Assembly: GCA_016188075.1 (NCBI GenBank)
Contig: JACPIO010000025.1
Coordinates: 3,579 to 67,578, forward strand
DNA: 64,000 bases
Reading direction: 5' to 3'
DNA from: Candidatus Wolfebacteria bacterium
GTDB lineage: Bacteria > Patescibacteriota > Minisyncoccia > UBA6257 > UBA9933
Notes under the pieces: model-generated
Database searches by the model: none
What the model was told of the DNA's origin: nothing
Seen by the model: only the letters and a program-made list of their open reading frames with translations
Translations under genes and position numbers: made by a program
Shown here: positions 6,610 to 62,280 of the stretch, in pieces
How the letters are laid out: every line of letters begins with the position of its first letter
Numbering within the stretch: position 1 is the stretch's first letter

Positions 6610-6993
6610 GTGGAATATCTAACCAGAAAAGACGTTTTATTGATTCATTCGATAATAATTGATGAAACGGGCGGGAGTCATGGCGTGAGAGATCATCACG
6701 CCATTTTAGTATTAGAAGATTTGCCGCGTCAGGCGGTTTTTGGGAAAGAGTTATATCCGACGATATATTTAAAAGCAGCGCTTTACGCGAGGAATATCAT
6801 CATGAGCCACCCGTTCATTGATGGGAATAAAAGGACCGGAGCGACCGCCGCATCGGTATTTTTAGAGAATAACGGCCATAAAATAACCGCTCAAAAAGGA
6901 GAGATTGAAAAATTCACCTTGAGAATCGTAAAGCAAAAACTGGATTTGGAAGAAATCGCTGATTGGTTTAAAAAACATTCGCGCAAGATTTAA
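6610..6993 (+). CDS. doc: Doc (death-on-curing) / Fic-family toxin
   Basis: 127 aa; Fic/Doc motif HPFIDGNKRTG. Confidence 0.8.
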   Translation: MEYLTRKDVLLIHSIIIDETGGSHGVRDHHAILVLEDLPRQAVFGKELYPTIYLKAALYARNIIMSHPFIDGNKRTGATAASVFLENNGHKITAQKGEIEKFTLRIVKQKLDLEEIADWFKKHSRKI

Positions 6994-7536: not shown

Positions 7537-7971
7537 AACGCCTTTATCGGTGAATACTCGCACAATTTAGATCAGAAGGGCCGAATGGCGATTCCGGCGA
7601 AATTTAGAGAGAAGATGGTGGGCGGCGCGATTGTAACGCGCGGATTAGACCACTGCCTTTTTGTTTTTACCAATAAAGAATGGGAAGCGTTGGCGCAAAA
7701 GTTGGTAAGTTTGCCTTTGGCGCAATCAAATTCTCGGGCGTTTGTCCGTTTGATGCTCGCCGGAGCAATGGATGTGGAATTGGATAAGCAAGGCAGAATT
7801 TTAATTCCGGACTATCTAAGGGATTACGCTTGTTTGAAAAAACAGGTGGTGGTGGCTGGAATTTATAATCGTTTTGAAATTTGGGACAGCGAGGCGTGGA
7901 AGCAGTATAAAAATAAAACCGAAAGTCAGTCGGATGAGATAGCGGAGAAACTTTCGGAGTTAGGGATTTAG
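7534..7971 (+). CDS. mraZ: transcriptional regulator MraZ
   Basis: 145 aa; N-terminal IGEYSHNLDQKGRMAIP and second DKQGRILIP repeat typical of MraZ. Confidence 0.85.
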   Translation: MNAFIGEYSHNLDQKGRMAIPAKFREKMVGGAIVTRGLDHCLFVFTNKEWEALAQKLVSLPLAQSNSRAFVRLMLAGAMDVELDKQGRILIPDYLRDYACLKKQVVVAGIYNRFEIWDSEAWKQYKNKTESQSDEIAEKLSELGI

Positions 7972-7982
7972 CTTATTAGCTT
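7971..7982. repeat. left 12-bp inverted repeat (gcttattagctt) of the IVS-protein cassette
   Basis: perfect reverse complement of 8365-8376. Confidence 0.6.
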
Positions 7983-8005
7983 CATTAGCTTTTCAGGGAT
8001 TAGTC

Positions 8006-8371
8006 ATGATGGTCCATTCATACAAAGATTTAATAGTTTGGCAGAGGTCAGTTGAGCTAGTGGTCGCTGTTTATGAACTAACAGAAAAATTTCCAAAAGA
8101 AGAGATTTATGGATTGGTTTCACAAATGAGGAGAGCGGCGGTTTCAATTCCGTCGAACATCGCGGAAGGAAGATTAAGAGGAACAAGAAAAGATTTCTCG
8201 CAGTATTTAAGAATCGCGTACAGTTCGGGGGCTGAGTTGGAAACGCAAGTAGTAATAGCCAAAGCGCTTCCCAAGATGAAAAATCTCAATTATTTAAAAG
8301 TTGATTCATTATTGGAAGAAACAATGAAAATGCTGAACGTAATGATAAGGGGGTTAAATCCTAAAAGCTAA
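8006..8371 (+). CDS. four-helix-bundle protein, 23S rRNA intervening-sequence protein family
   Basis: 121 aa; motif FPKEE...QMRRAAVSIPSNIAEG...FLRIAYSSGAELETQ; inserted between mraZ and rsmH; flanked by 12-bp inverted repeats. Confidence 0.8.
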   Translation: MMVHSYKDLIVWQRSVELVVAVYELTEKFPKEEIYGLVSQMRRAAVSIPSNIAEGRLRGTRKDFSQYLRIAYSSGAELETQVVIAKALPKMKNLNYLKVDSLLEETMKMLNVMIRGLNPKS

Positions 8372-8376
8372 TAAGC
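8365..8376. repeat. right 12-bp inverted repeat (aagctaataagc) of the IVS-protein cassette
   Basis: perfect reverse complement of 7971-7982. Confidence 0.6.
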
Positions 8377-8394
8377 TATAGAAGCTAAAGGGCT

Positions 8395-9405
8395 ATGCAC
8401 CAACCGGTTCTTTTAAAAGAAACAATAGCTTTACTGGATCCGAAGCCCGGAGAATTCATTATTGATGGAACAATTGGTTCGGGCGGCCACGCAGCTAAAA
8501 TTTTTGAGAAAATTTTACCTCAAGGTAAATTGATTGGTATAGATTTAGATAAAGATAATCTTAAAAAAACAGAATCAAAAATTTTAGCTGAAATCAAAAA
8601 TGAAAAAGACCCGCCGGGGAGCGCAGCAGTAAAGATTAAAAATAATTTAATTCTGATTCAGGGAAATTACGCGGACTTACCGGAAATTCTTCAAAGCGCG
8701 GAACTACGCGGACTAAACGCAGACAAACGCGGAAAAAGAAAAGTTGATGGGTTATTACTCGATTTGGGGATGTCGTCGGAGCAGATAGAGCGGTCGGGAA
8801 GGGGGTTCAGTTTTTTGAGAAACGAGAAGTTAGACATGAGATATAACCATGAAGCAGGAAGCATGAATCATGAAGCATGGGCGACGGCAGGGGAAGTAAT
8901 AAATCGATTAAGTGAGAAGGAGTTGGCGGAGATTTTTTGGAAATACGGGGAGGAAAGATATTCGCGGCGGATCGCTAAGGGAATAGTAGAAAGTAGAAAG
9001 AGAATGGCGATTAAAACAACATTTGATCTGGTTCGCATCATAAGAAAATCAGCGCCAAAAAGTTATGAGAAGGGGCGTATACATCCGGCCACCAGAATTT
9101 TTCAGGCGCTTCGAATATATATAAACGACGAGTTGGGAAACTTAGAAAGATTGTTGAAAAATGCGCCTAATATTTTAAAAAGTGGCGGCCGGGCAGTAAT
9201 AATTTCTTTTCATTCGCTCGAGGATCGGTTAGTGAAAAATTATTTTAGAGAGATGAAAAAAGAAGGAAAAGCGGAGATTTTGACAAAAAAACCCATTATG
9301 GCTACGAGAGAAGAGGTGAAATTGAATCCTCGGTCTCGCTCCGCCAAACTTAGGGCAATAAAATTTAATTATTCTACGAAATTCGTAGACGATCGGCGAC
9401 CATGA
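8395..9405 (+). CDS. rsmH: 16S rRNA m4C1402 methyltransferase RsmH (MraW), with a low-complexity in-frame insert
   Basis: MHQPVLLKE...DGTIGSGGHA SAM-binding motif; ~25 aa longer than typical; insert SAELRGLNADKRGKRK is encoded by the ACGCGGA array at 8665-8738. Confidence 0.85.
   Translation: MHQPVLLKETIALLDPKPGEFIIDGTIGSGGHAAKIFEKILPQGKLIGIDLDKDNLKKTESKILAEIKNEKDPPGSAAVKIKNNLILIQGNYADLPEILQSAELRGLNADKRGKRKVDGLLLDLGMSSEQIERSGRGFSFLRNEKLDMRYNHEAGSMNHEAWATAGEVINRLSEKELAEIFWKYGEERYSRRIAKGIVESRKRMAIKTTFDLVRIIRKSAPKSYEKGRIHPATRIFQALRIYINDELGNLERLLKNAPNILKSGGRAVIISFHSLEDRLVKNYFREMKKEGKAEILTKKPIMATREEVKLNPRSRSAKLRAIKFNYSTKFVDDRRP
8665..8738. repeat. ACGCGGA-type periodic array inside rsmH coding sequence
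   Basis: units attacgcggactta, agcgcggaact, acgcggactaa, acgcagacaa, acgcggaaaa. Confidence 0.6.
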
Positions 9406-9709: not shown

Positions 9710-11395
9710 ATGACAGGGAATTGGAGAGTGGCGAGTTTAATTATCATCTTTAGCCTTATCTATTCTTTTTTAATTTTTAATATTTACAATCTCCAGTTCG
9801 AAAAGAGAGTTTACTATTTGAGTTTGGCGGAAGCGCGGGATGAAGCCGGCGGAGTCTTGAAAGCCGAGCGGGGAAATATTTATTTTACCGATAAAAACGG
9901 CACTGCCATTCAGGCGGTTTTGAACAAAGAATATCCGATAATTTACGCCGTCCCCGCTGAAGTTCAGAGAAACGCCGATCAACGCGGATTCGGAACGCGG
10001 ATTTACGCGGAGCAATTAGAAACGATATTGGGTATCTCTGCTTCCGAATTAGAAAAAAAATTAGTTAAACCGAATGACGAATATGAACTTCTTGTCGAGA
10101 AAGCAACCGCCGAGCAGGTGGCGGCGATGAAGAGGTTGGATATTAAGGGTATCTATGTCAAAAATGAATTGCTTCGATTTTATCCCTTTGGCGATTTGGC
10201 GGCGCATCTTTTGGGTTTTGTTTCGCCGGCGAGCGACAAAGAAGACTCGCCTTCCGGGGAGGCGGAGTTTGGTCGGTACGGAGTCGAACTTTATTTTAAT
10301 AAGTTTTTAGCCGGACAGAACGGAACGCTTAAGGACGATAAACTGATTGAATCCGAAAAAGGAAAAGATTTGTTTTTGACGATTGATCGGAGTATCCAAT
10401 CCGAAGCCGAAGAAATTCTGAAAAATTTGGTTCAAGAAAAAGAAGCGGAGGCAGGGACGGTCATCGTCGAAGAGCCGAAAACCGGGAAAATTTTGGCCAT
10501 GGCTAATTTTCCCAATTTTGATCCAAATAATTATTCCGGATTTGGGGTGGGTAAATTTTTAAATCCGGCCACGGAGGCGGTTTACGAACCGGGTTCGATT
10601 TTTAAGATATTCACGATGGCCGCCGGCATTGACAGCGGGAAAATTACGCCGGAGACGGAATACACGGATACCGGCAGCGTTACTTTTAACGGGAAAACAA
10701 TAAAAAACTGGGATTTGAAAGCGCACGGCAGGCAAACCATGACCGGCGTGATTGAGCAATCCATAAACACCGGCGCGGTTTTTGCCGAAAGAAAAACCGG
10801 TCATGATATTTTTTATACTTACTTGAATAAATTCGGGTTAAGCGAGCCGACTAAAATTCAGTTGCCCGGAGAAGTGTCGGGCAATCTTAAGAATCTAAAA
10901 AACGGCCGCGACATTGATTTTGCAACGGCCTCTTTTGGCCAGGGAGTTGCCGTTACGCCGATTGAATTGGTGAACGCCGCCTCCGTCGTAGCCAATGGAG
11001 GGCTTCTTATGAGACCTTACATCTTGAAAAATGAAGAGCCGAAAGTAGTGCGCCGAGTTTTAAAAGAAGAGACCAGTCGAGCTGTTCGAGAAATGATGAC
11101 TTCGGCAGTTGTAAAAAACAAATTGGCGGCCATTCCCAATTATAACGTGGCTGGGAAAACCGGAACCGCTTTTGTGCCGGATTTCAAACGCGGCGGATAT
11201 ACCGATGAAGTTATAAACACCTACATTGGTTTTGCTCCGGCTTCGGATCCCCGTTTTATAATTTCCGTAAAGTTGGAAAAGCCGGCCGGTAGTCCTTTGG
11301 CTGGCCAGACCGTGGTGCCGGCTTTCCGGGCGCTCGCCGAATTTATTTTGAATTACTACAATATACCGCCGGATAAATTAGACCAACATCAATGA
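9710..11395 (+). CDS. ftsI: peptidoglycan transpeptidase FtsI / PBP
   Basis: 561 aa; SxxK (GSIFKIF), SxN (SINTGAV) and KTG(T) motifs. Confidence 0.85.
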   Translation: MTGNWRVASLIIIFSLIYSFLIFNIYNLQFEKRVYYLSLAEARDEAGGVLKAERGNIYFTDKNGTAIQAVLNKEYPIIYAVPAEVQRNADQRGFGTRIYAEQLETILGISASELEKKLVKPNDEYELLVEKATAEQVAAMKRLDIKGIYVKNELLRFYPFGDLAAHLLGFVSPASDKEDSPSGEAEFGRYGVELYFNKFLAGQNGTLKDDKLIESEKGKDLFLTIDRSIQSEAEEILKNLVQEKEAEAGTVIVEEPKTGKILAMANFPNFDPNNYSGFGVGKFLNPATEAVYEPGSIFKIFTMAAGIDSGKITPETEYTDTGSVTFNGKTIKNWDLKAHGRQTMTGVIEQSINTGAVFAERKTGHDIFYTYLNKFGLSEPTKIQLPGEVSGNLKNLKNGRDIDFATASFGQGVAVTPIELVNAASVVANGGLLMRPYILKNEEPKVVRRVLKEETSRAVREMMTSAVVKNKLAAIPNYNVAGKTGTAFVPDFKRGGYTDEVINTYIGFAPASDPRFIISVKLEKPAGSPLAGQTVVPAFRALAEFILNYYNIPPDKLDQHQ

Positions 11396-12637
11396 ACTGG
11401 TTTTTGAATAAATTGGCAAGGATTACGGTTTGGCGTTTTGAGCCGAAGATTATTGCTGTTACCGGAAGTGTCGGCAAAACCGCGACCGTGGAGAAGATCG
11501 AAGCGGTTTTGAAGCACCCGGTTTTTTTGTCAGAGAGAGATAATCGCGGTGCCACTCGCGCTCTTGGGCGATTGGCGCGATGAAGATTTAGGGCTCTTAA
11601 CTTTTAACGACTTGCCCGTCTCCCAAAAAATTAAAAAAATATTTTTTTGGACTAAGGTGATTTTAACGCCAATCATTAAATTGTTTTTTCGGCTTCGAAA
11701 AAAACATCAAGAGATTTTGATTCTCGAATACGGACTTCAGAAAAACTTGAAGATAAGAGATTTTTTGGAAATGGCCAAACCCGATATCGGAGTAGTGACG
11801 GCTGTTGGCGATATTCCGGCGCATGTCGAATTTTGGAGCGGCCCTTGGGCAGTCGCCCGAGAAAAGTCAAAAGTGGTTGAATGCCTCGACTCCGATGGTT
11901 TTGCCGTGTTGAATTTTGATGACGAGGCGGTTTTGGAGATGAAAAAGCGAACAAGGGCTAGAATCATTACTTTTGGTTTTGGCCCAGGGGCGGATGTAAG
12001 AATTATGAATTTTGAAAATCAATTCGAGAATCCCGAGTCCTACGGAATCAATTTTAAGATTGGCTACGGCGGGAGCGTGGTGCCGGTCAAGCTTCGTAAT
12101 GTTTTCGGCAAGGCCGAAGCGTATGCCGCCTCCGCGGCAGTTTGCATTGGTTTGATTTTTGATTTGAACTTGGTTGAAATTGCCGAAGCCTTGCAAAGTT
12201 CGCATTCCCTTTATTCCGGCAAGAGGATTTTAAAAGGAGTCAAAGAAACGGTGATTATTGAAGATTTGAGCGATGTTTCGCCTTTGTCAATGGATGAAGC
12301 CATTCATGTTTTGGGAGAATTTAGAGACCGAAGGAAAATCGCGGTTTTGGGAGATATGCTTGATTTGGGTAAGTGGAGCATTGAAGCTCACGAAGCCATC
12401 GGCCGGCTCACGTCCACGACCGTTGATCTTTTGTTTACGGTCGGGCCCCGGGGAAAATTAATAGCCGAGGGAGCCCGAGAAGGGGGTCTATTCAAAAATA
12501 AAATTTTAAGCTACGATACTTCGGTCGAGGCTGGAAGAAAACTTCAAGATTTATTAAAGAAAGGGGACGCGGTTTTGATAACCGGAGCCAGAGAGTTGAG
12601 AATGGGAGAGGTGGTGGAAGAAGTAAAAAGTAATTAG
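11392..12637 (+). CDS. murF: Mur ligase, MurF-like, interrupted by a frameshift at a T7 homopolymer (11522-11528)
   Basis: ORF 11392-11583 carries the P-loop TGSVGKTAT; reading continues in another frame from about 11511 (…EIIAVPLALL… then Mur middle/C-terminal domains, LGDMLDLG); the two frames overlap across the T7 run. Confidence 0.65.
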
Positions 12638-12660
12638 TAATTGGTAATTAGGATTAATTA
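12631..12660. repeat. 8-bp periodic AT-rich array (taattagtaattggtaattaggattaatta)
   Basis: related arrays at 59908-59970 and, reverse-complemented, at 23831-23855. Confidence 0.5.
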
Positions 12661-16852: not shown

Positions 16853-17764
16853 ATGGAATCTCTGCAGTCGTTAAAATCCCGTCTTCGGGCGGTAAAAAAT
16901 ATCGGGCAGATTACGAAAGCAATGGAAGTGGTCTCTGCCACCAAAATGCGGAGAGCGCAGGAGGCGGCGCTAAATTCCCGGCCGTATGCCTTTGAGGCCC
17001 TGCGTCTTTTGGATAAAGTGAGTCGAGTTTTTAAGAATGGGGCAATCGTCCCGCTTGGTGAGAGCCGTCCCGTTAAGGCAACGCTTGTTATCGTTGTTTC
17101 TTCGGATCGCGGATTGGCCGGCTCCTTTAATACGCAGATTTTCCGAATAATAGATAATTTTACGGCAGCGGATTTTTTTATAACTGTCGGTAAAAAAGCC
17201 GACCGATTTTGTTCCGGAAGGGGATTTAAAGTGATCGAGAGATTTTCCGGTTGGGGCGATTATGCCGAACCGCGTGAATGCGATCCGTTGGCTTCCGCGG
17301 TCATTGACGGTTTTTTGCGAAAGAAATGGGACAGGGCGATCGCGATATCAACGCATTTTCGCACAACCCTGAAGCAGGAAGTTTTGGTTCGCCAGATTTT
17401 ACCGGTTGATTTCGAAAAAATCCGGGAAACCGCGAGGGAGCTAGTTCCGGAAAGCGGTCGCTGGGCGGAGTTGAGAAAAAATATGGCTGACGACGCTAAC
17501 CATGACAATGACTATATTTTTGAACCGTCGCCATCCGAAGCGTTAAGCGCGCTTGTGCCGCATTTGGTTAGAATGCAAATTTATCATTTAATTTTAGAAG
17601 CTAACGCTTCGGAGCATTCGGCCCGGATGGTGGCGATGAAAAGCGCTTCGGATAACGCCGAAGAACTTTCCGGGGAAATCACTCTTGATTACAACAAGGC
17701 GCGGCAAGCGGGCATCACCAAAGAAATAATCGAAATAGTCGGAACGCAGACTGCGATGACATAA
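16853..17764 (+). CDS. atpG: F0F1 ATP synthase subunit gamma
   Basis: 303 aa; operon position; conserved C-terminal helix. Confidence 0.85.
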   Translation: MESLQSLKSRLRAVKNIGQITKAMEVVSATKMRRAQEAALNSRPYAFEALRLLDKVSRVFKNGAIVPLGESRPVKATLVIVVSSDRGLAGSFNTQIFRIIDNFTAADFFITVGKKADRFCSGRGFKVIERFSGWGDYAEPRECDPLASAVIDGFLRKKWDRAIAISTHFRTTLKQEVLVRQILPVDFEKIRETARELVPESGRWAELRKNMADDANHDNDYIFEPSPSEALSALVPHLVRMQIYHLILEANASEHSARMVAMKSASDNAEELSGEITLDYNKARQAGITKEIIEIVGTQTAMT

Positions 17765-17787: not shown

Positions 17788-19206
<1,419 letters not shown>

Positions 19207-20100: not shown

Positions 20101-20445
20101 ATGATTCCCAGAAACGTTATCAAAGATTTAAAACTGCTCGCTTCATTCGGCGCCGCCATTTTCGCCTTATTTTTAGGATTCGTTTTCGTTTACATTCATT
20201 TCGCCGACTTTAATGGTTTGGTGATCATTCATTTCGATTCACGCGAAGGCATTGATTTTCTGGGGAGCGTGAAAGACGTGTTCGGCATTTTGGCTTCGGC
20301 TTTTATTATGATTGTTGTCAATCTTTTTTTATCCAATTTTCTTTACTACCGCGAGCGGTTTTTGGCCTATGTTTTTGCTTTTGTTAGCTTGGCGCTCGCT
20401 ATCTTGATTTTAATCGCGATATCGGTTATTGTGTCAATTAATTGA
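20101..20445 (+). CDS. hypothetical membrane protein
   Basis: 114 aa; 3-4 predicted TM helices. Confidence 0.5.
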   Translation: MIPRNVIKDLKLLASFGAAIFALFLGFVFVYIHFADFNGLVIIHFDSREGIDFLGSVKDVFGILASAFIMIVVNLFLSNFLYYRERFLAYVFAFVSLALAILILIAISVIVSIN

Positions 20446-20525
20446 TAAGCAGTTAGAATCTAGAATTTAGTATTTAGGGGGCGGGGATTAGATTCCTAAC
20501 TCCTAAATACTAACTCCTAACTACT

Positions 20526-20843
20526 ATGGGTTTTGCAATCATTCAAACTGGCGGGAAGCAATATAAAGTATCTCCGGGGCAAAAAATTAGAATAGAAAAA
20601 GTTGAACCTAACGAAGAGGGGAATTTTGTCTTTGATAAAGTTCTTTTGGTTGCGGAGCAAGACGGAGAGGTTAAAATCGGCACGCCGTATGTTTCGGGCG
20701 CGAAGGTCGAGGGAAAAGTTTTAAAACAGGGGAGAGATAAAAAGAAAATTATTTTCCGCTATCATTCGAAAACGCGCTATCGAAAAAAGAAAGGGCATAG
20801 GCAGCCGTTTACGGAAGTCCTGGTTGACAAAATTAAGGGTTAA
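20526..20843 (+). CDS. rplU: 50S ribosomal protein L21
   Basis: MGFAIIQTGGKQYKVSPGQKIRIEK. Confidence 0.9.
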   Translation: MGFAIIQTGGKQYKVSPGQKIRIEKVEPNEEGNFVFDKVLLVAEQDGEVKIGTPYVSGAKVEGKVLKQGRDKKKIIFRYHSKTRYRKKKGHRQPFTEVLVDKIKG

Positions 20844-22691: not shown

Positions 22692-22762
22692 GCGGGCGTA
22701 GTATAGTGGCAATACGCGACCTTCCCAAGGTTGAAGCGGGAGTTCGATTCTCCTCGCCCGCT
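22692..22762 (+). tRNA. tRNA-Gly (anticodon CCC)
   Basis: acceptor gcgggcg/cgcccgc, anticodon loop ttCCCaa, T-arm gggag-ttcgatt-ctcct. Confidence 0.8.
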
Positions 22763-22771
22763 CAAATTATC

Positions 22772-23965
22772 ATGAAATTTTTAAATTCGTTGGAGAAAAA
22801 AAGTCTTGCTGGCGAGATTTGTCTTTTGCGGATGGATTTGGATATTGAAAACACGGACTTACGCGGACTTAACGCTGACTCACACAGACAATTGCCATTC
22901 AGATTAGAAGCGGCTTTGCCGACAATTAAATTTTTGCTCGAAAGAAAAACCAAGGTGGTAATCTTGTCTCATCGCGGTAGGCCGCGGTCTGGGATATACG
23001 CGGATAGACGCAGAAAAGAATTCTCCCTGAAGCCGTTTGTGAAGATTTTAGCGTCCTTATTGAAACGCCCCATCTATTTTATCGATTTTAAAAATCTTAC
23101 GAGGCTTAGCCTCGTAAGATTGAAAAATGTTGTTAGAGACTCCGCCCCGGGCGCTATTTTTCTTTTGGAAAATTTAAGATTTTTGAAGGGTGAAATGGAA
23201 AACGACAAAAAATTCGCGAAACAATTGGCGTCGCTGGGAAGTTTTTACGTAAACGATGCTTTCGGCGTCAGTCATCGGGCGAACGCTTCAGTCGAAGCCA
23301 TTACTCATTTTTTGCCTTCATACGCCGGTTTGCACATGGAAAAAGAATTAGAAAAACTGAATGGGTTGACGAAAAAAGCGAAACGGCCATTCGTGATTAT
23401 TCTCGGCGGTTCGAAAACTCACGATAAACTGCCGCTTATAAAAAATTTATGGAATAAAGCGGATTATTTTCTTTTGGGCGGCGGGGTTGCCAATACTTTT
23501 TTCGCGGCTCAAGGATTGCTGATCGGAGATTCCTTGCGTGGAGACAGCGCGGAACTGCGCGGAATACTGCGCGGAATTACGCGGAAAGAATTATCACGAA
23601 AAGTTATCTTGCCAGTTGATGTTGCGATTAAGGATAGAAAAATTTTGGATATCGGACCGAAAACAGTTAAAAGATTCGGCGAAATTATAAAGAAAGCGAA
23701 AACGATTATTTGGAACGGGCCAATGGGATTGATTGAGGATCCGCGATTTGCCAAGGGTTCGGCGGAGGTGGCACGATTTATTTCTCAAAGCCGCGCTTTC
23801 TCTGTTGTTGGTGGAGGAGAAACTACCTCTCTAATTACCAATTACCAATTACCAATTACCAAAAGAAATATTTTTCTTTCTACCGGCGGCGGCGCGATGC
23901 TCGAATATCTGGCGGGCAAGAAATTACCGGGCATAGAGGTGTTGAAAAAGTCTACTGTCGACTGA
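22772..23965 (+). CDS. pgk: phosphoglycerate kinase carrying in-frame repeat-derived segments
   Basis: ILSHRGRP, FYVNDAFGVSHRANAS, GGGVANTF and STGGGAMLEY motifs; ATG at 22772 (the track ORF from 22706 overlaps tRNA-Gly); 10-aa insert NLTRLSLVRL from the 29-bp palindrome. Confidence 0.85.
   Translation: MKFLNSLEKKSLAGEICLLRMDLDIENTDLRGLNADSHRQLPFRLEAALPTIKFLLERKTKVVILSHRGRPRSGIYADRRRKEFSLKPFVKILASLLKRPIYFIDFKNLTRLSLVRLKNVVRDSAPGAIFLLENLRFLKGEMENDKKFAKQLASLGSFYVNDAFGVSHRANASVEAITHFLPSYAGLHMEKELEKLNGLTKKAKRPFVIILGGSKTHDKLPLIKNLWNKADYFLLGGGVANTFFAAQGLLIGDSLRGDSAELRGILRGITRKELSRKVILPVDVAIKDRKILDIGPKTVKRFGEIIKKAKTIIWNGPMGLIEDPRFAKGSAEVARFISQSRAFSVVGGGETTSLITNYQLPITKRNIFLSTGGGAMLEYLAGKKLPGIEVLKKSTVD
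22851..22885. repeat. ACGCGGA-type array inside pgk (encodes TDLRGLNADSH)
   Basis: units acacggactt, acgcggactta, acgctgactc. Confidence 0.5.
23093..23121. repeat. palindromic element copy 3 (aatcttacgaggc-tta-gcctcgtaagatt) in-frame inside pgk
   Basis: 13-bp arms; about 10 extra residues relative to E. coli Pgk at this position. Confidence 0.75.
23545..23590. repeat. ACGCGGA-type array inside pgk (encodes SAELRGILRGITRKE)
   Basis: gcgcggaact, gcgcggaatact, gcgcggaattac, gcggaaag. Confidence 0.6.
23831..23855. repeat. ccaattac x3 tandem repeat inside pgk (encodes ITNYQLPIT)
   Basis: reverse complement of the taattggtaatt family at 12631-12660. Confidence 0.5.
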
Positions 23966-26394: not shown

Positions 26395-26491
26395 CTTTTA
26401 TCATTGACTTTTTAATTTTTTTCTTATACCCTGTATTTAATCGGCAAGTCAGGCGATTACTGTCGTGCCTCACTATCGTTCGGCGCAAAAA

Positions 26492-26572
26492 AATACGAAT
26501 TTAACACGAAAAATACGAATGCCACGAATAAATTGATTCGTATCATTCGTGTAATTTCGTAGATTCGTATTA
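26492..26572. repeat. palindromic TACGAA/TTCGTA periodic array inserted in the P3 stem-loop of RNase P RNA
   Basis: lies between P3 strands gtcgtgcctc (26463-26472) and gaggcacga (26593-26601), making P3 about 135 nt. Confidence 0.6.
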
Positions 26573-26816
26573 TGTAAGTGGCGAGCGGCAGCGAGGCACG
26601 ATGGAGGAAAGTCCGGACACTCTCCCGATGAAAATCGGGATAAACAAGTAGCGGCTAACAGCCGTCGTCCAGCTTAGCGGGATAGAGGTGCGAGCAGTGA
26701 CGTCCCGAGACGAAAGTCGAGGGAGAGCCCGATCCCAAGCTTGACGGCTTAACTCTGCGATAGGGATAAGAAAGCAGAGGTGAAACGGCTAAATCCTTAC
26801 TGGGTGCAAGGTTGTG

Positions 26817-26844
26817 CCGAGCACATAACGCTTTATGTGCTCGG
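26817..26844. repeat. palindrome ccgagcacataacgc-tttatgtgctcgg inside rnpB (second copy at 56353-56380)
   Basis: near-identical 28-bp hairpin upstream of rpmA. Confidence 0.6.
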
Positions 26845-27009
26845 AATACCGCTAGAGCCTAAGAGTAATCGACGGCCCAGATAAATTATCGCCACCCCCC
26901 ACCACTTTTGAAAAAAAGTGGTGGGGGGACAGAATCCGGCTTATGACTTGCCGATTTTTTGTTTGTTAAACTAATTAGTGATTTTCGCCCATTGCGCTAT
27001 AATTTAAAA

Positions 27010-27840
27010 ATGGGTAGGAGGAATATCACAATTAAAGCTAACCAGCTTCGGGATTTGTATTTACGAAAAGAGTTCACGGCTGCCCAAATTGCAAACGTCC
27101 TTCAATGTACTGACGTTACTGTATTAAACAAACTTCATTATTATGGAATCAAAGTTAACCGGCCAGGTAGAAGAAATTTTAAATATAAAAAATTCCCATT
27201 TGACGGTAACTTATTAGAAAAATCCTACATGATGGGATTTCGTATGGGAGATTTAAATGTTTATCGACCAAAAAATAAGTTATCACGGATCTTTGTTGTT
27301 CGATGCCATACTACTTCTAAAGATCAATTAGGTGTTTTCCAAAAAATTTTCTTTAGGTATGGACATTCAACCGTTTCGGTTTCCCCTGATAATTCTTACC
27401 ACGTAAATTGCTATTTAGACCATTCCTTCATTTTTCTACTGGATAAAAGTAAAATTCCACAATGGATTGGGGAGGCTCCAAATCTCGGTTGGTCGTTTAT
27501 GGCGGGATACTGCGACGCCGAGGGTTCTTTTGGAATAGATCAAGGACGAGGAAGATTTAAAATTGATAGCTACGATTATTTTATTTTGAGGTGGATTAAA
27601 AAATTTTTAGATAAGAACCAAATAAAAAGTAAATTTAGATGTATATATAAACAAGGTAGTTTGCGTAAAGATGGGACGTTGTGGAATAATAATTTGTGGC
27701 GACTCAATATAAATACTGCATTATCGTTGGAGACATTCGTAAGATCTATTTTGCCTTTCTCGTTGCATAAAAAAAGAGTTAAAGATGCTAATAAAGTTTT
27801 AAGAAATATTAAAGTAAGAAGAGAAAATGGAACAATTTGA
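27010..27840 (+). CDS. LAGLIDADG-family homing-endonuclease-like protein with N-terminal HTH; AT-rich
   Basis: FMAGYCDAEGSFG (LAGxxDxEG) plus degenerate first motif MMGFRMGDLNV; ATG 27010 preceded by tataat (track ORF starts at TTG 26959); overlaps the lepA start. Confidence 0.5.
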   Translation: MGRRNITIKANQLRDLYLRKEFTAAQIANVLQCTDVTVLNKLHYYGIKVNRPGRRNFKYKKFPFDGNLLEKSYMMGFRMGDLNVYRPKNKLSRIFVVRCHTTSKDQLGVFQKIFFRYGHSTVSVSPDNSYHVNCYLDHSFIFLLDKSKIPQWIGEAPNLGWSFMAGYCDAEGSFGIDQGRGRFKIDSYDYFILRWIKKFLDKNQIKSKFRCIYKQGSLRKDGTLWNNNLWRLNINTALSLETFVRSILPFSLHKKRVKDANKVLRNIKVRRENGTI

Positions 27841-40957: not shown

Positions 40958-41010
40958 ATTCCGCGACTTTCCGCGTTAAGTCCGCGAGATTCCGCGATTA
41001 ATGCGAGAGC
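40958..41010. repeat. TCCGCG-type periodic array in the kinase / pilC intergenic region
   Basis: attccgcgact, ttccgcgttaag, tccgcgagat, tccgcgattaa. Confidence 0.55.
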
Positions 41011-50998: not shown

Positions 50999-52144
50999 TC
51001 ACATTTCAACGGGTTTCCCGCCTTCAATCTGAATTTTTTTCAATTTCAACACCGACGCGCGAGTCGGTGCTCCGACTCCTTCGGGACGTCGGAGTTTTCC
51101 GTTAATTAATTCCGCCTCCAAAATTTTTATTCTTTGAGGTCCACCCTTCGACGGGCTCAGGGTAAATACTCCTGGTTCGGGATTTAAAGCCCGAATTTTC
51201 CGCTCTATTTGAATCGCGATTTCTCCGCCCTCGCTCCGCGCGTTTTCTAAATCCGCTGGTTCAATAAAAGCATCTTCAGTTTTGAATTTTTTGGTATAGG
51301 TGGCTCGCGATTCGTCTTGGGGTGTGAGGTTCAATCTCCCAAATATTGACTCTAATTCATGAGGAGATTGAACCTCCCGAAATTGATTCAAAAATTCCAC
51401 CAGTAAATCGCCGCCCAATTCCGCCAATTTCCGCATTAGCGATTCATAATTCATAATTCCTAATTCATAATTCTCAAGCGCTTTTTGCGCGAGAACTGGT
51501 CCGTGATCCACTTTTTCATCCATTAAAAAAAGCGTTACGCCGGTTTCTTTTTCGCCGTTCAAAATCGCGGACTGAATAGGGGAGGGGCCGCGGTATTTTG
51601 GCAAGAGCGACGGATGAATTCCGATTGAGCCGAGCCGCGGAATCTCCAAAATTTCTTTGGGAAGAATTTTCGCGTAAGCGGCAACTACAAAGAAATCATA
51701 TTCCCGATATAATAAATTTGCCGTGGGTCCGGAATGGTTCGGGTTCGGGATTGACACCCGAGACCCCGGGGCTCGATTCCCCGCGGATCCACGGTCTTCT
51801 GATTTATCCACAAGGGGGCTTGACAACTGGTCATCGTTTAATATACTAATGTTAGGTGTCAATCCCGGATTTCTCGAATCATTCGAGGTTTCGGCAAAAG
51901 CCCCGTTTAAAGCGGGGTTTTTGGTTTTTAAATTTTCTGGTTGCCAAACCGGGATATCGTATTTTTGAGCAATAATTTTGGTAGGGGGTGATGTCAGTAT
52001 CTTTTTTCTTCCCACTGGCCGGTCGGGATTGCAAACAACCACTCCCGGCGCGAAACCGGCTTTAATCAATCTCTCCAAAATAATGGCGGCGAACTCAGGA
52101 GTACCGAAGAATACGAAATTTGGATTACGAAAATACGAAATCAT
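50999..52144 (-). CDS. fmt: methionyl-tRNA formyltransferase carrying two in-frame inserts
   Basis: FGTPEFA, HPSLLPKYRG, C-terminal domain; 381 aa versus about 315; about 65-aa GC-rich insert between the VWQP and VVAAYAKIL blocks (DNA 51721-51925); ENYELGIMNYES encoded by the 8-bp array. Confidence 0.85.
   Translation of the reverse strand: MISYFRNPNFVFFGTPEFAAIILERLIKAGFAPGVVVCNPDRPVGRKKILTSPPTKIIAQKYDIPVWQPENLKTKNPALNGAFAETSNDSRNPGLTPNISILNDDQLSSPLVDKSEDRGSAGNRAPGSRVSIPNPNHSGPTANLLYREYDFFVVAAYAKILPKEILEIPRLGSIGIHPSLLPKYRGPSPIQSAILNGEKETGVTLFLMDEKVDHGPVLAQKALENYELGIMNYESLMRKLAELGGDLLVEFLNQFREVQSPHELESIFGRLNLTPQDESRATYTKKFKTEDAFIEPADLENARSEGGEIAIQIERKIRALNPEPGVFTLSPSKGGPQRIKILEAELINGKLRRPEGVGAPTRASVLKLKKIQIEGGKPVEM
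51442..51473. repeat. 8-bp periodic array (attcataattcataattcctaattcataattc) in-frame in fmt
   Basis: same family as 19166-19206. Confidence 0.6.
51721..51925. mobile_element. ~200-bp GC-rich MITE-like element inserted in-frame in fmt, containing a plus-strand tRNA-like fold and 12-bp inverted repeats
   Basis: IR gggattgacacc (51747-51758) / ggtgtcaatccc (51855-51866); tRNA-like at 51725-51791 (acceptor gggtccg/cggatcc, anticodon arm tcggg-attgaca-cccga, T-arm cgggg-ctcgatt-ccccg, no D-arm); hairpin + T-run ccccgtttaaagcggggttttt at 51901-51922. Confidence 0.55.
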
Positions 52145-52160
52145 ACGAAAAATACGAAAT
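52110..52160. repeat. TACGAA periodic array at one end of the GxxExxY unit (overlaps the fmt N-terminus)
   Basis: atacgaaat, ttacgaaaa, tacgaaatca, tacgaaaaa, tacgaaatt. Confidence 0.6.
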
Positions 52161-52570
52161 TATTTTATATTGACTACTCTTTTAAATTTTACTCCTGATT
52201 TTGTAAATCTAGCTAGTATTCCTAATTTTAAATTCGTTGATTTTAAATAATTATAAATTTGCTCTATGTCTTTTTTACTAAAAACATTTCCTTGTTTAAT
52301 TTCTAAAACTATCTTTCCTTCAATTAAAAAATCTAAATAAATTGTTGTAATAAAATTATTTCTATAATTTATTCTAATTGGTAGTTCTTTTTCGTAATTA
52401 ATATTGGATTTTTTAAAGGCAATTTCTATGGCTTTTTGATATTGATTTTCTTTATAGCCAAAACCCAATTCTAAAAATACATCAAAAAGAACACCAATTA
52501 TCTGATAACTAAGTTCAGGATATAGTAAATCGGGGTTGTAAACTTTATTGTTTTTCGTACTTTCGTACAT
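52160..52570 (-). CDS. free-standing GxxExxY / PD-(D/E)XK nuclease-like protein
   Basis: LSYQIIGVLFDVFLELGFGYKENQYQKAIEIAF ... DFLIEGKIVLEIK; inserted between def and fmt. Confidence 0.7.
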   Translation of the reverse strand: MYESTKNNKVYNPDLLYPELSYQIIGVLFDVFLELGFGYKENQYQKAIEIAFKKSNINYEKELPIRINYRNNFITTIYLDFLIEGKIVLEIKQGNVFSKKDIEQIYNYLKSTNLKLGILARFTKSGVKFKRVVNIK

Positions 52571-53099
52571 TTTCGTACTTTCGTAAGTTCTTACATTTAT
52601 CGATGTACAAAATTCCATTTAGGTGGTCTACTTCATGTTGAAAAACTTTAGCCAAAAGTCCCCAGGCTTTGATTTTGATTTTTTTAGCGTTTTTATCCTG
52701 GCCGACAAGAGTAATTTTTTCCGGGCGTTCCACGTCGCCGTAATATCCTCCGGGCACGCTTAAGCAACCTTCTTCCATTAAGGTTTTTTTATCGGAGGTT
52801 TTTATTATTTTCGGATTAAAAATAGCGTAAAACTTCTGGTCTTCCGAGGTCACTGAATTAGCGCTTCGTCGCGAGGTGGCCCTTACTTGCGCCACAAATA
52901 CTCGCATATCAAGGCCGATTTGATTGGCAGCTAATCCGATCCCATCCGCCTCAATCATTTTCTCTTTCATTTCTTTTACCATCGCATTAATTTCTTTCTT
53001 GCTATATTTAGTAAAATCAAAATTCGCCGTCTGCCTGCGCAAAAATTTTTCTTCTGCCTTGTTATCTCTTGTTAAAATTTTTAAATTTTGATTTGGCAT
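52545..53099 (-). CDS. def: peptide deformylase
   Basis: GIGLAANQIG, EGCLSVPG, HEVDHLNG; start taken at MPNQ (53099); the track ORF extends to 53177 through a repeat-rich region. Confidence 0.85.
   Translation of the reverse strand: MPNQNLKILTRDNKAEEKFLRRQTANFDFTKYSKKEINAMVKEMKEKMIEADGIGLAANQIGLDMRVFVAQVRATSRRSANSVTSEDQKFYAIFNPKIIKTSDKKTLMEEGCLSVPGGYYGDVERPEKITLVGQDKNAKKIKIKAWGLLAKVFQHEVDHLNGILYIDKCKNLRKYENVRKYEKQ
52553..52590. repeat. TTCGTA periodic array at the other end of the GxxExxY unit (inverted orientation)
   Basis: ttcgtactttcgtacattttcgtactttcgtaag. Confidence 0.6.
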
Positions 53100-53436
53100 T
53101 TTTTCGTACTTTCGCCCGCCTCGCCGACTCGACCTCCGTAGCCACTTCGGCGAAGGAAGCAGCCTTCGGCGTAGCACGGGTATATTTTCGCACTTTCGTA
53201 AGTAGTGTCATGAAGTACGCTCCTTTATTGCTCACATTTTTTCTGTCGGAAACATCTCGCGCCAATTCCAATAGTTTTTGCTGGTCTTTTTCTTTGGCTA
53301 ATTTGATATAGAGCGATTTATGTTTTTCGTCGTTCAAAAGTTGGCTAATCAAAAGTCCGGTTAATTGATATTTCCGATAAACCCGACTCTTCTTGGCGCG
53401 CTCTTTAAGGGTTTCGATGTAACCTGTTTTTTCCAT
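53062..53436 (-). CDS. hypothetical basic protein
   Basis: 124 aa; overlaps the def start; contains a GC-rich segment flanked by TTCGTA units. Confidence 0.35.
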   Translation of the reverse strand: MEKTGYIETLKERAKKSRVYRKYQLTGLLISQLLNDEKHKSLYIKLAKEKDQQKLLELARDVSDRKNVSNKGAYFMTLLTKVRKYTRATPKAASFAEVATEVESARRAKVRKNAKSKFKNFNKR

Positions 53437-54118: not shown

Positions 54119-54295
54119 TGAAGAAGCGGCTTTTTGTCGCGATCAATCTGCCTCAAGATACGAAAGAAGAAATTGAAAAGATTCTTCCAATATATCGAGG
54201 TTCAACCTCGATAGGTTCAACCTCGATATATTGCAACCTCGATATATTGCAGTATCAAGTCATCGCAAGCTCGACATTTGGCAATAAATAAAATA
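54119..54295 (+). pseudogene. possible 5' remnant of a 2'-5' RNA ligase (ThpR/LigT-like) gene, disrupted by tandem repeats
   Basis: MKKRLFVAINLPQDTKEEIEKILP then three tandem caacctcgatat-type units (54192-54252) and a stop. Confidence 0.3.
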
Positions 54296-56429: not shown

Positions 56430-57143
56430 ATGTCAACTCCAAAGTTAATTTTCGACATTGAAACAATCGGCGCGGATTTTGATTCTTTGGATAAAACAAC
56501 CCAAGACGTTTTAACGAGGTGGATTAAAAAGGAATCGGAAGACGGGGCGGATTACGAAGAGTCGCTAAAAAATTTAAAGGAAGGTTTGGGATTTTCTCCT
56601 TTAACCGGGGAAATTATTGTTATCGGCACTTTGGATTATGAAAAGAATCAGGGCGGAATTTATTTCCAGGCGCCCGGAAAAGAAATCGAAGATTTTACCG
56701 AGGATGGGATCAAATTTAAACAGATGACGGAAAAAGAAATGCTCTCGCGGTTTTGGCAGATAGCTAATCAATACGGCGAGTTTGTTTCTTTTAACGGCAG
56801 GGGTTTTGATGGGCCGTTTTTGATGATCCGATCAGCGGTGCACGGCATTGCGCCCACGAAAAATTTATCGGAATCAAGATATTTGTATCAGCAAAGGACT
56901 TGCGTTCATATTGATTTGATTGACCAGCTTACGTTTTACGGCAATATGCGAAAAAAGGGAGGATTGCATCTTTGGTCTAATTTATTCGGAATCGAGAGTC
57001 CGAAAGCCGAAGGCGTGAGCGGGGATGATGTCTCTCAACTATTCAAATCCGGAAAATTTTTGGAAATCGCGAAGTATAACGCGAGAGATCTCAAAGCCAC
57101 GAAGGAATTGTATGAAAAATGGAAAACCTATTTAAATTTCTAA
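56430..57143 (+). CDS. RNase-H-fold 3'-5' exonuclease (PolB-exonuclease-domain-like)
   Basis: LIFDIETIG ... FNGRGFDGPFL ... YNARDLKATKELY. Confidence 0.6.
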   Translation: MSTPKLIFDIETIGADFDSLDKTTQDVLTRWIKKESEDGADYEESLKNLKEGLGFSPLTGEIIVIGTLDYEKNQGGIYFQAPGKEIEDFTEDGIKFKQMTEKEMLSRFWQIANQYGEFVSFNGRGFDGPFLMIRSAVHGIAPTKNLSESRYLYQQRTCVHIDLIDQLTFYGNMRKKGGLHLWSNLFGIESPKAEGVSGDDVSQLFKSGKFLEIAKYNARDLKATKELYEKWKTYLNF

Positions 57144-57498
57144 TTTCTAATTAACCTAATTGACCTAAAAAATGACCAATTTGCAAAATCCCAAGAAATA
57201 CGATTTAGAAGAAAGAACTGCTAAATTTTATGGAGAATATTAAAGCTTGGCTATCAGAACATCGCAGGGACATCATTCTCTTTCTTTTGGTATTTTTAAT
57301 TAGTTCTTTAAGTTTCGGCTTGGGTTATTTGGTTAACCGCGAATTTAACCACGCCCCGATTGTGATAACCCAATGCGAATCTACGAATTGATGCGAATCC
57401 CTTGTGTTTCTTATAACGATTTGTTATTTTGAAATCAGCGAGGAAATGCGCTCGCGGCGTTTTTCCCTTGACTTGGGAATAAGGAGAAAGGAGGCAGT

Positions 57499-61669: not shown

Positions 61670-61794
61670 CCCTCCTTTTTTGCCCCCACACCAAACGAGA
61701 AGACACGCTTTCTCGTTATGGTGTGGGGGCTTGACAAATTTTTCAAGCTTCGTATAGAATAGGCTGTCGATAAAGAAAGGTCAAAGTTAAAGTA

Positions 61795-61880
61795 TCGATG
61801 CGAATATACGAATTATACTAATGATACGAATTTTATTCGTATAATTCGTACATTTGTATATTGGTATCGATACGCGCGAA
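61795..61880. promoter_or_regulatory. palindromic TACGAA/TTCGTA array upstream of groES (candidate operator; no CIRCE present)
   Basis: perfect IR tacgaattatac (61807-61818) / gtataattcgta (61839-61850) plus flanking gtatcgat repeats. Confidence 0.45.
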
Positions 61881-62176: not shown

Positions 62177-62180
62177 TCGC

Positions 62181-62260
62181 TCATACGAAAATACGAAAAC
62201 ATACGAAATTTCGAAAAATAAATTTTAATTTCGTACATTCGTAAAATTTCGTACTTTCGT
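62181..62260. repeat. palindromic TACGAA array in the groES-groEL spacer
   Basis: tacgaaaatacgaaaacatacgaaatttcgaaaa ... tttcgtacattcgtaaaatttcgtactttcgtaag. Confidence 0.6.
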
Positions 62261-62280
62261 AAGAGTGAGCGACAGCGAAC

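Follow-up and report, generated by a model that had tools for sequence, protein, structure and literature searches.

A 64,000-nucleotide stretch of a Candidatus Wolfebacteria bacterium genome (contig JACPIO010000025.1; the whole stretch is referred to as the window) carries a small GxxExxY-family nuclease gene that separates the genes for peptide deformylase (def) and methionyl-tRNA formyltransferase (fmt) and is enclosed by two inverted arrays of the hexamer TACGAA. The resulting cassette consists of a promoterless 136-residue nuclease gene between two arms of ∼35–40 nt, each composed of four hexamers and an outer GC clamp, and it lies co-directionally within the X–def–fmt operon, exactly at the def|fmt junction. 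The architecture is general, its distribution is patchy and incongruent with that of host genes, and both the protein and the arms are constrained. We consider it somewhat probable that the cassette is a compact selfish, homing-like element of nuclease-in-palindrome design, which would move by the route proposed below.

The nuclease gene and its arms at the def–fmt junction

The open reading frame (ORF) holding the motifs quoted in a preliminary description of this region (52160–52618, minus strand) matches PF13366 PDDEXK_3 (E = 1.1e-27, 97.1 bits, cutoff 22) and TIGR04256 GxxExxY (E = 1.8e-27, 96 bits, cutoff 35) in profile hidden Markov model searches. The catalytic set E41, D80, E90 and K92 (the E of GxxExxY, D, and ExK) is invariant among the family members compared, and the proposal that a GxxExxY nuclease ORF splits def from fmt is thereby borne out. 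The gene limits given there also stand, with a length of 136 residues in place of 137; the start at ATG 52570–52568 agrees with the gene calls in relatives. A confident predicted structure has a PD-(D/E)XK core nearest to those of Cas4, restriction enzymes and Hjc, such that both marks of the superfamily, the restriction-endonuclease-like fold (as modeled) and the PD-(D/E)XK catalytic residues, are present. Besides PDDEXK_3, the one further match was HSDR_N_2, below cutoff (E = 0.005). Family profile scans matched the nuclease to no transposase of a known family (DDE, HUH, serine or tyrosine recombinase), a PDB sequence search found no relative, neither tblastn against phage genomes nor the PHROG families gave a match, and the sole PADLOC match was to a marginal unnamed model (E = 0.002, 14.9 bits). 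The G+C fraction of the gene is 0.23, compared with 0.39 for def and 0.46 for fmt.

The arms overlap the coding sequences on either side (Table 1). The nuclease ATG is located at the center of the upstream arm, which def reads as its last 14 codons (LRKYENVRKYEKQ and stop), its native C-terminal tail having been swapped for arm-encoded residues; the def stop (52547–52545) lies 23 nt past the nuclease ATG. The fmt start codon is the central ATG of the downstream arm (52144–52142), 15 nt beyond the nuclease stop, and is in frame in the window and in the related loci L005, L006 and L007. The start and first nine codons of fmt (MISYFRNPN) lie in or directly after this arm, and native coding resumes at F-V-F-F-G. 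The preliminary description had the arrays run into the coding starts of the nuclease and fmt, as they do, and the last 14 codons of def can be added to that claim. Its placement of arrays in opposite orientation on either side of the ORF is likewise correct for the arms, with the exception of the outermost unit at 52112, which belongs to fmt itself, as seen from vacant junctions with the sequence ATG AAA TTC GTA TTT TTC GG. The empty-site relatives L096 and L100 carry ATGaaaTTCGTAtttttcgg.

The heptamer TTTCGTA begins at 52553, 52561, 52571 and 52579 on the plus strand, its complement is found at 52112, 52126, 52134, 52144 and 52153, and the arm-to-arm inverted repeats comprise 26 nt with 85% and 15 nt with 93% complementarity. 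In the window as a whole the heptamer occurs 38 times, compared with 15.2 ± 4.1 in shuffled sequence (0 of 100 shuffles reach 38), and arrays of three or more identical hexamers at 7–13-nt spacing number 17, compared with 0–1 in 20 shuffles. Chance or low complexity as the source of the arrays is ruled out by these heptamer and array statistics and by the flank statistics given below. The two def–fmt arms pair across 410 nt in both minimum free energy and centroid folds (z −3.6). They resemble neither sigma-70 promoters nor intrinsic terminators, and a promoter and terminator scan around the cassette found such sites to be no commoner than in shuffles.

Table 1. Coordinates of the cassettes, arms, palindromes and host genes in the window
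Feature	Position	Strand	Remarks
Nuclease gene, GxxExxY PD-(D/E)XK	52160..52570	minus	136 aa
Upstream arm (5' inverted repeat)	52553..52590	minus	TACGAAag TACGAAaATG TACGAAag TACGAAaa; 4 units spaced 8/10/8
Downstream arm (3' inverted repeat)	52120..52159	minus	TTCGTAttt TTCGTATGAT TTCGTAtt TTCGTAa; 4 units
Fifth TTCGTA-like unit	52112..52118	minus	native fmt codons (N-F-V), outside the element
def (peptide deformylase)	52545..53099	minus	PF01327, E 7e-45; upstream of nuclease
fmt (methionyl-tRNA formyltransferase)	50999..52144	minus	PF00551/PF02911; downstream of nuclease
Lone TACGAA arm just upstream of def start	53096..53203	minus	TACGAAagTGCGAAaatataC[67-nt GC-rich insert]GAAAGTACGAAaaaATG
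Second cassette, GxxExxY domain in frame in LepA	28022..28481	+	TIGR04256, E 5e-35, 120 bits
ORF-less 4+4 ACGCGGA/TCCGCGT-type palindrome in lepA	28838..28918	+	in frame; 24 extra residues, provisionally counted against E. coli LepA
Second ORF-less ACGCGGA/TCCGCGT-type palindrome in lepA	29207–29263		in frame; 21 extra residues, counted in the same way
ORF-less 4+4 TACGAA/TTCGTA palindrome	62179..62268		GC clamp GCTCA...TGAGC; fills groES–groEL spacer
ORF-less TACGAAT/ATTCGTA palindrome	61792..61873		upstream of groES; 4+4; hairpin z −6.9
ORF-less TACGAA/TTCGTA palindrome	26494..26575		inside RNase P RNA gene; P3-loop insertion
Four-helix-bundle cassette between mraZ and rsmH	7968..8387	+	flanks TAGCTT x3, AAGCTA x3

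Occurrence at related loci and constraint

A profile-guided scan of species-representative genomes yielded 80 related nuclease loci, nearly all from Patescibacteria and two from DPANN archaea. The median alignment score between the two flanks of a nuclease was 42 with one flank inverted and 16 with both read directly, and it was 26.5 when the arms came from different loci; strict arrays are present at 63% and 66% of the flanks, where 2.9% is expected from the background of the same loci. The 4+4 unit layout is seen in 38 loci, in 18 of which all eight units are identical; the typical form is gc-TACGAA-a-TACGAA-tttg-TACGAA-ta-TACGAA ... TTCGTA-ta-TTCGTA-caaa-TTCGTA-t-TTCGTA-gc. One hexamer is usually common to all eight units within a locus, and it differs between loci (TACGAA in 44, TACAAA in 12, TACTAA in 10 and TACGGA in two). 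The terminal inverted repeats are ∼35–40 nt long with 84% Watson–Crick pairing (77 loci), and the complementarity reaches the 4-nt outer flank, or clamp (69% compared with 36% in shuffled pairings); the arm spacers are weakly complementary (58% compared with 43%). Neighboring genes are co-directional on both sides in 74 of the 77 loci and no locus has opposite-strand neighbors only, with a median of 39 nt from the nuclease stop to the next gene start.

GxxExxY genes of Planctomycetota, Omnitrophota and Elusimicrobiota are likewise bracketed, by ACGCAGAT or CACGGAT units, and an exhaustive profile search (E ≤ 0.001) puts the size of the GxxExxY family at 17,481 clusters at 50% identity. The preliminary description had suggested a selfish or mobile element family in this genome; recurrence in ∼80 loci, the many junctions occupied and the incongruent tree agree with this, at a range far wider than the one genome. 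Two side observations concern these relatives. Many proteins of ∼265 residues have two tandem GxxExxY domains (P0366, P0368 and others), and L010 has, at ∼1400–1500, an extra upstream arm and a 10-codon stub (MYEITKNRFYT and stop) ahead of an intact cassette, resembling a remnant left by an earlier copy or else a partial duplication.

Vacant def|fmt sites were obtained from a metagenome scan with def. In many of the closer def relatives (55–73% identity) there is no ORF between the two genes, which abut or overlap, as an ATGA overlap in L098 and with gaps of 6–12 nt in L095, L096, L101 and L103; the premise that def and fmt are normally adjacent therefore holds. The site is empty in L090, L095, L096, L098 and others, and it is filled in the window and in L005, L006, L007, L012 and L014, where the same nuclease subfamily (63–83% identity) occupies it. 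Other junctions are used as well. The cassette lies at corA|cysS in L008, and in L013 a full cassette occupies the neighboring X|def junction and def|fmt is empty, the window's X|def junction carrying a lone TACGAA arm. Between a penicillin-binding protein (PBP) gene and a Mur-ligase gene, the junction holds a cassette in L073, L079 and L088, and in the window it is empty, the two genes overlapping by ATGA; rpsG|fusA is a further cassette site. The def|fmt junction is elsewhere filled by ORF-less palindromes of other units and, in L097, by a four-helix-bundle ORF flanked by AGTATT/AATACT arrays.

The nuclease was compared with def and fmt, by tree and by identity, in six genomes. L006 is the outgroup for def (45–52%) and for fmt (36–48%), yet its nuclease is among the closest to that of the window: L006 and the window are 47% identical in def, 43% in fmt and 83% in the nuclease. 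As far as these sequences indicate, the nuclease phylogeny conflicts with the def and fmt trees. The nuclease is also 12–20 points poorer in G+C than the host genes in all six genomes (0.21–0.37 compared with 0.35–0.53). The dN/dS of the nuclease is 0.06–0.13, with dS from 0.8 to saturation, and across nine loci the upstream arm keeps 87% identity, compared with 53% at nuclease third codon positions. Judged by this divergence, the nuclease protein and the arms are both under purifying selection.

Nested copies, ORF-less palindromes and a sister cassette

The second nuclease of the window is nested in frame in LepA, flanked by ACGCRGA units at 28022–28065 and TCYGCGT-type units at 28444–28481 (39 matches to this unit in the window, compared with 15.5 ± 3.9 expected). 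The preliminary description had pointed to a unit of matching layout inside lepA; the unit is real and in frame, with a different repeat. In comparison with a Wolfebacteria LepA that has no insert, the place of a 6-residue hairpin turn is taken by ∼155 residues, and the stretch that immediately follows has 85% identity; LepA is found both with and without the nested nuclease in Wolfebacteria. Full-length LepA::GxxExxY fusions account for 94 of the 120 best-scoring LepA clusters and proteins without the insert for 26, in a ranking biased toward insert-bearing matches by the insert present in the query. Splicing at the RNA level was set aside as needless for the lepA insert because all three lepA inserts are in frame and full-length fusions are common. 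Nested in-frame GxxExxY domains also occur in GatB, RecG, asparagine synthase (AsnB), a transketolase-type protein, glycosyltransferases and an alpha/beta hydrolase (P0442, P0474, P0477, P0484, P0493, P0443, P0453 and P0490). In L170 (3001–3800), a lepA::GxxExxY gene has arms of the 4+4 GCGGA/TCCGC type, and a TAA in the reading frame immediately follows the downstream one, so that gene calling divides LepA in two; the gene could be truly split or a pseudogene, or the stop could be a sequencing error. Directly upstream of lepA in the window, a 293-residue ORF (26959–27840, plus strand) falls just short of the LAGLIDADG_3 threshold (22.2 bits, cutoff 22.5) and may be a free-standing homing endonuclease gene.

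Further ORF-less arrays of the same build, for which the preliminary description suggested a search, are present in the window, where ORF-less copies are commoner than ORF-bearing ones; the TACGAA and ACGCRGA unit families each comprise one nuclease copy and ORF-less copies. The solo palindromes fold as hairpins (z −5 to −6.9; −31.8 kcal/mol and z −6.1 for the groES–groEL copy), with loops of 3–20 nt and no ORF remnant. In the RNase P RNA, the Rfam alignment (26441–26958, plus strand) has 125 nt in place of the 4-nt P3 loop, and the score of 76 bits is under the Rfam gathering score of 100. These palindromes are either miniature derivatives of the cassette or landing sites for it. The unit sequences TACGAA, ACGCGGA, TAGCTT and AATTACC coexist in one genome, and a role as DNA uptake sequences was rejected because so many different units coexist.

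Between mraZ and rsmH, a gene at 8006–8371 belongs to the four-helix-bundle family TIGR02436/PF05635 (23S_rRNA_IVP). Its inverted TAGCTT/AAGCTA flanks indicate the same cassette design with different cargo, and four-helix-bundle genes with the inverted-array layout are also found in L020, L025 and L097. Two ORF families that are unrelated to each other thus occupy the same architecture.

Other features of the window are recorded here as observations. In the lone arm upstream of def, a 67-nt GC-rich segment (53115–53185) splits the third unit and is translated in the tail of the upstream ORF; it looks like a nested small insertion. The def gene has a 13-residue insert at ∼52855–52900 (RATSRRSANSVTS) that is missing from def of L005, L006 and L007, and fmt has an in-frame insert of ∼70 residues (51690–51905, minus strand) that is missing from fmt of L005, L007, L012 and L014 and is bounded by the inverted repeat gggattgacaccc/ggtgtcaatccc. 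The plus strand of the fmt insert contains a near-consensus promoter-like site (TTGACA-16-TATACT, 51820–51847), a strong terminator-like hairpin (51895–51923) and a weak tmRNA-like fragment (51725–51794, 25 bits), and the insert may be a small antisense RNA gene or another type of element. One-armed ACGCGGA/TCCGCG arrays lie at 8706–8733, 9982–10011, 22998–23014, 23548–23586 and 40960–40996, several of them in frame within rsmH, the PBP transpeptidase and ORF 22706–23965 and one in the spacer before 41064. Further arrays or palindromes are located at 12630–12649, 19175–19201, 20441–20539, 23833–23862, 51447–51473, 54185–54236 and 57140–57161; these families (GTAATT, GAATTA, AATTACC, TAATTC and CTAATT, with a 38-nt and a 24-nt palindrome) have no partner ORF in the window. 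A Doc-family toxin ORF (TIGR01550) is encoded at 6610–6993 on the plus strand.

Mobility, alternatives and relation to known elements

In the mechanism we propose for a homing-like element, the nuclease is probably expressed from the operon transcript, with its translation coupled to that of def and the translation of fmt coupled in turn to that of the nuclease, since the stop and start codons overlap. The nuclease would recognize its own hexamer arrays, either as duplex or as an extruded hairpin or cruciform, and would break the DNA at sites that carry an array or are vacant. The cassette could then be copied in by the recombination and repair systems of the host, in the manner of homing and without a target-site duplication. 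The pairing arms would cause the insertion to fold back on itself and so be tolerated or harmless, and this would account for the presence of copies at operon junctions, in structured-RNA loops and in frame in the surface loops of proteins.

Several observations weigh against this proposal. The link between nuclease and arrays is associative, and on sequence evidence the unit type tracks the nuclease tree loosely, at short range only: mean nuclease identity is 54.9% for pairs of loci with the same unit and 53.2% for pairs with different units. Nuclease-free four-helix-bundle genes use the same architecture, and the arms may therefore not depend on the nuclease; together with the loose tie between unit and tree, this disfavors the nuclease as sole driver. 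Target-site duplications, which the preliminary description had suggested looking for at the array ends, were not found there: the outer flanks match directly over 3.49 nt at the longest, compared with 3.54 ± 0.14 in shuffled pairings, and inspection of the def|fmt site by eye gave the same result. No near-identical copies that would indicate recent transposition were found. The two window nucleases are 30% identical and the spacers of the solo copies differ; the window copies are old and divergent. None of the empty def|fmt sites carries a TACGAA solo array that could serve as a landing pad, and a pre-existing array in this role was set aside on that account. Finally, the def|fmt slot is occupied in at least six genomes whose def proteins are 47–64% identical, and so long-kept a slot, combined with strong purifying selection, also fits a retained host function. 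The preliminary description had held that a def–ORF–fmt order conserved across relatives, with no polymorphism of the arrays, would speak against mobility. The order is kept in at least five fairly distant genomes, and the insertion is therefore not a recent one in this genome, but the site is empty in closer def relatives.

The pairing of the arms raises the question of whether the cassette acts at the RNA level, like the intervening sequences (IVSs) of rRNA. The arms would then form a ∼35-bp stem in the transcript that is cut by RNase III, separating the def, nuclease and fmt messages and hiding the nuclease start; the ORF would be a passenger, and spread would occur by ordinary recombination or transformation. 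The predicted folds across 410 nt, the start codons of the nuclease and fmt inside the arms and the total co-orientation with host transcription (74 versus 0) are what such an element would show, as is an ORF-less copy in the P3 loop of RNase P RNA, which recalls the IVSs in rRNA helices. The sister cassette, moreover, carries the 23S_rRNA_IVP family that has been reported in rRNA insertions and IVSs of the Candidate Phyla Radiation (CPR) (PMC11270868). However, a test for pairing in the sense RNA was neutral, G.U-compatible mismatches between the arms not being in excess over A.C mismatches (87 versus 70, p = 0.2). The spacers are weakly complementary and the hexamers within an arm identical, an identity that a stem alone does not need, and a function purely as a stem is disfavored by the hexamers being kept identical with spacers that are not complementary. 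An Rfam scan of nine loci (six without a flanking ORF on one side and three others) gave no match, rRNA included, and a scan of the window found no rRNA. Copies lying in frame in LepA and other proteins appear to be translated along with the host protein and not removed, and the patchy distribution and incongruent nuclease tree are left unexplained. We regard this account as unlikely, though worth keeping in view.

It is somewhat less probable still that the nuclease is a domesticated host gene for repair, recombination or defense, with the arrays as its cis-regulatory sites or substrates and with patchiness resulting from loss and occasional transfer. Strong purifying selection on protein and arms, the long stay of the cassette in one slot, the very large family and the intact LepA fusions in most of the best-scoring LepA clusters (in the biased ranking described above) would all be expected of such a gene. 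Against this, the nuclease matches none of the defense-system, phage or other functional families searched, its composition is foreign, its tree is incongruent with those of the host genes, close relatives manage without it, and it occupies sites as unrelated as def|fmt, corA|cysS, rpsG|fusA and the interiors of GatB, RecG, AsnB, transketolase and glycosyltransferases. The arrays could instead be palindromes similar to repetitive extragenic palindromic (REP) sequences or miniature inverted-repeat transposable elements (MITEs), moved by an enzyme encoded elsewhere, with small ORFs captured in their loops. We give this little credence. Two unrelated ORF families in one architecture, the predominance of ORF-less copies in the window and solo loops of 3–20 nt without ORF remnants agree with it, but a single trans-acting enzyme could hardly serve TACGAA, ACGCGGA, TAGCTT and AATTACC units in one genome, chance capture would not leave essentially every examined GxxExxY gene bracketed, and arms and ORF have been conserved together even where synonymous divergence reaches saturation.

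Among known systems, REPIN–RAYT elements have the closest layout, in that a single small enzyme gene is bracketed by inverted short repeats, ORF-less palindromic doublets are scattered in the genome, several enzyme and repeat families may coexist, and the enzyme gene, mostly a resident one, evolves under purifying selection. The cassette differs from them in its enzyme, a PD-(D/E)XK nuclease where RAYT is an HUH/Y1 (IS200/IS605-type) transposase, which places it outside the class. It also differs in having a four-hexamer array as its arm where a REP is one GC-rich hairpin, and in its location in operons overlapping start and stop codons, in coding sequences and in an RNA gene. With 23S rRNA IVSs the cassettes share inverted repeats forming a long stem around a small ORF or around no ORF at all, tolerance in the loops of essential transcripts and a sporadic distribution pointing to horizontal transfer; the IVS protein family in the sister cassette and the solo array in the P3 loop add to the likeness. 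Unlike an IVS, the cassette lies between protein genes and outside any rRNA helix, encodes a nuclease and has hexamer arrays for arms, and no rRNA-borne GxxExxY copy was found at the nine sampled loci.

Homing endonuclease genes, whether free-standing or carried by inteins or introns, are similarly small nuclease genes between or within conserved essential genes, present or absent at one site, with a phylogeny incongruent with that of the host and no target-site duplication. Both same-site presence and absence among relatives and an incongruent element phylogeny (in six genomes) were found here, and I-Ssp6803I is a precedent for a PD-(D/E)XK homing endonuclease. To our knowledge, homing endonuclease genes have neither terminal inverted repeats nor ORF-less palindromic relatives. 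The nested in-frame position in LepA resembles that of an intein, but the nested copies have no Hint or splicing domain and appear to stay in the mature protein. Rickettsia palindromic elements (RPEs) and Correia or MITE families are also short palindromes, in frame in protein genes, in RNA genes or in spacers, which are co-transcribed with host genes and whose hairpins are potential RNase III substrates; we know of no enzyme gene associated with these families and of none whose repeats are hexamer arrays. Correia elements make a TA duplication, and none is seen at the cassettes. Of the features of a classical transposon or MITE with terminal inverted repeats, the repeats are present and neither a target-site duplication nor a known transposase family was found.

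A more sweeping proposition, which is possible but which we hold with distinctly less confidence than the homing-like interpretation of the def–fmt cassette, is that GxxExxY nucleases and their cognate arrays are unrecognized cross-phylum mobile elements. They would spread by array-directed, homing-like break repair without target-site duplication, colonizing operon junctions, the loops of structured RNAs and the surface loops of essential proteins (LepA, GatB, RecG, AsnB, transketolase and glycosyltransferases) as non-splicing nested domains, and, with the four-helix-bundle cassettes, they might supply the autonomous relatives so far missing for rRNA intervening sequences and RPE-like coding palindromes. 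Searches for GxxExxY, PF13366, TIGR04256 and CPR palindromic or in-frame elements in the searchable literature, which is incompletely covered, found no description of an array-bracketed cassette; the cassette family is widespread and apparently undescribed. A survey of PD-(D/E)XK proteins lists the function of PF13366 as 'Unknown' (Steczkiewicz et al. 2012; PMC3424549), and the ORFs reported in CPR rRNA insertions are of the 23S_rRNA_IVP and not the GxxExxY family (PMC11270868).

If these interpretations are correct, they would provide a role for a very large family of listed-unknown function and an enzyme-bearing relative of rRNA IVSs and coding palindromes, the spread of which has long been puzzling. 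The insertions also affect annotation, through N- and C-terminal extensions that the arms encode, start codons that are displaced, split genes, an RNase P RNA that scores under its Rfam gathering threshold, and LepA and Fmt sequences that are inflated in phylogenomic alignments. The nucleases themselves are candidates for new sequence- or structure-specific enzymes, and very small genomes evidently tolerate in-frame nuclease domains in essential proteins without the aid of an intein.

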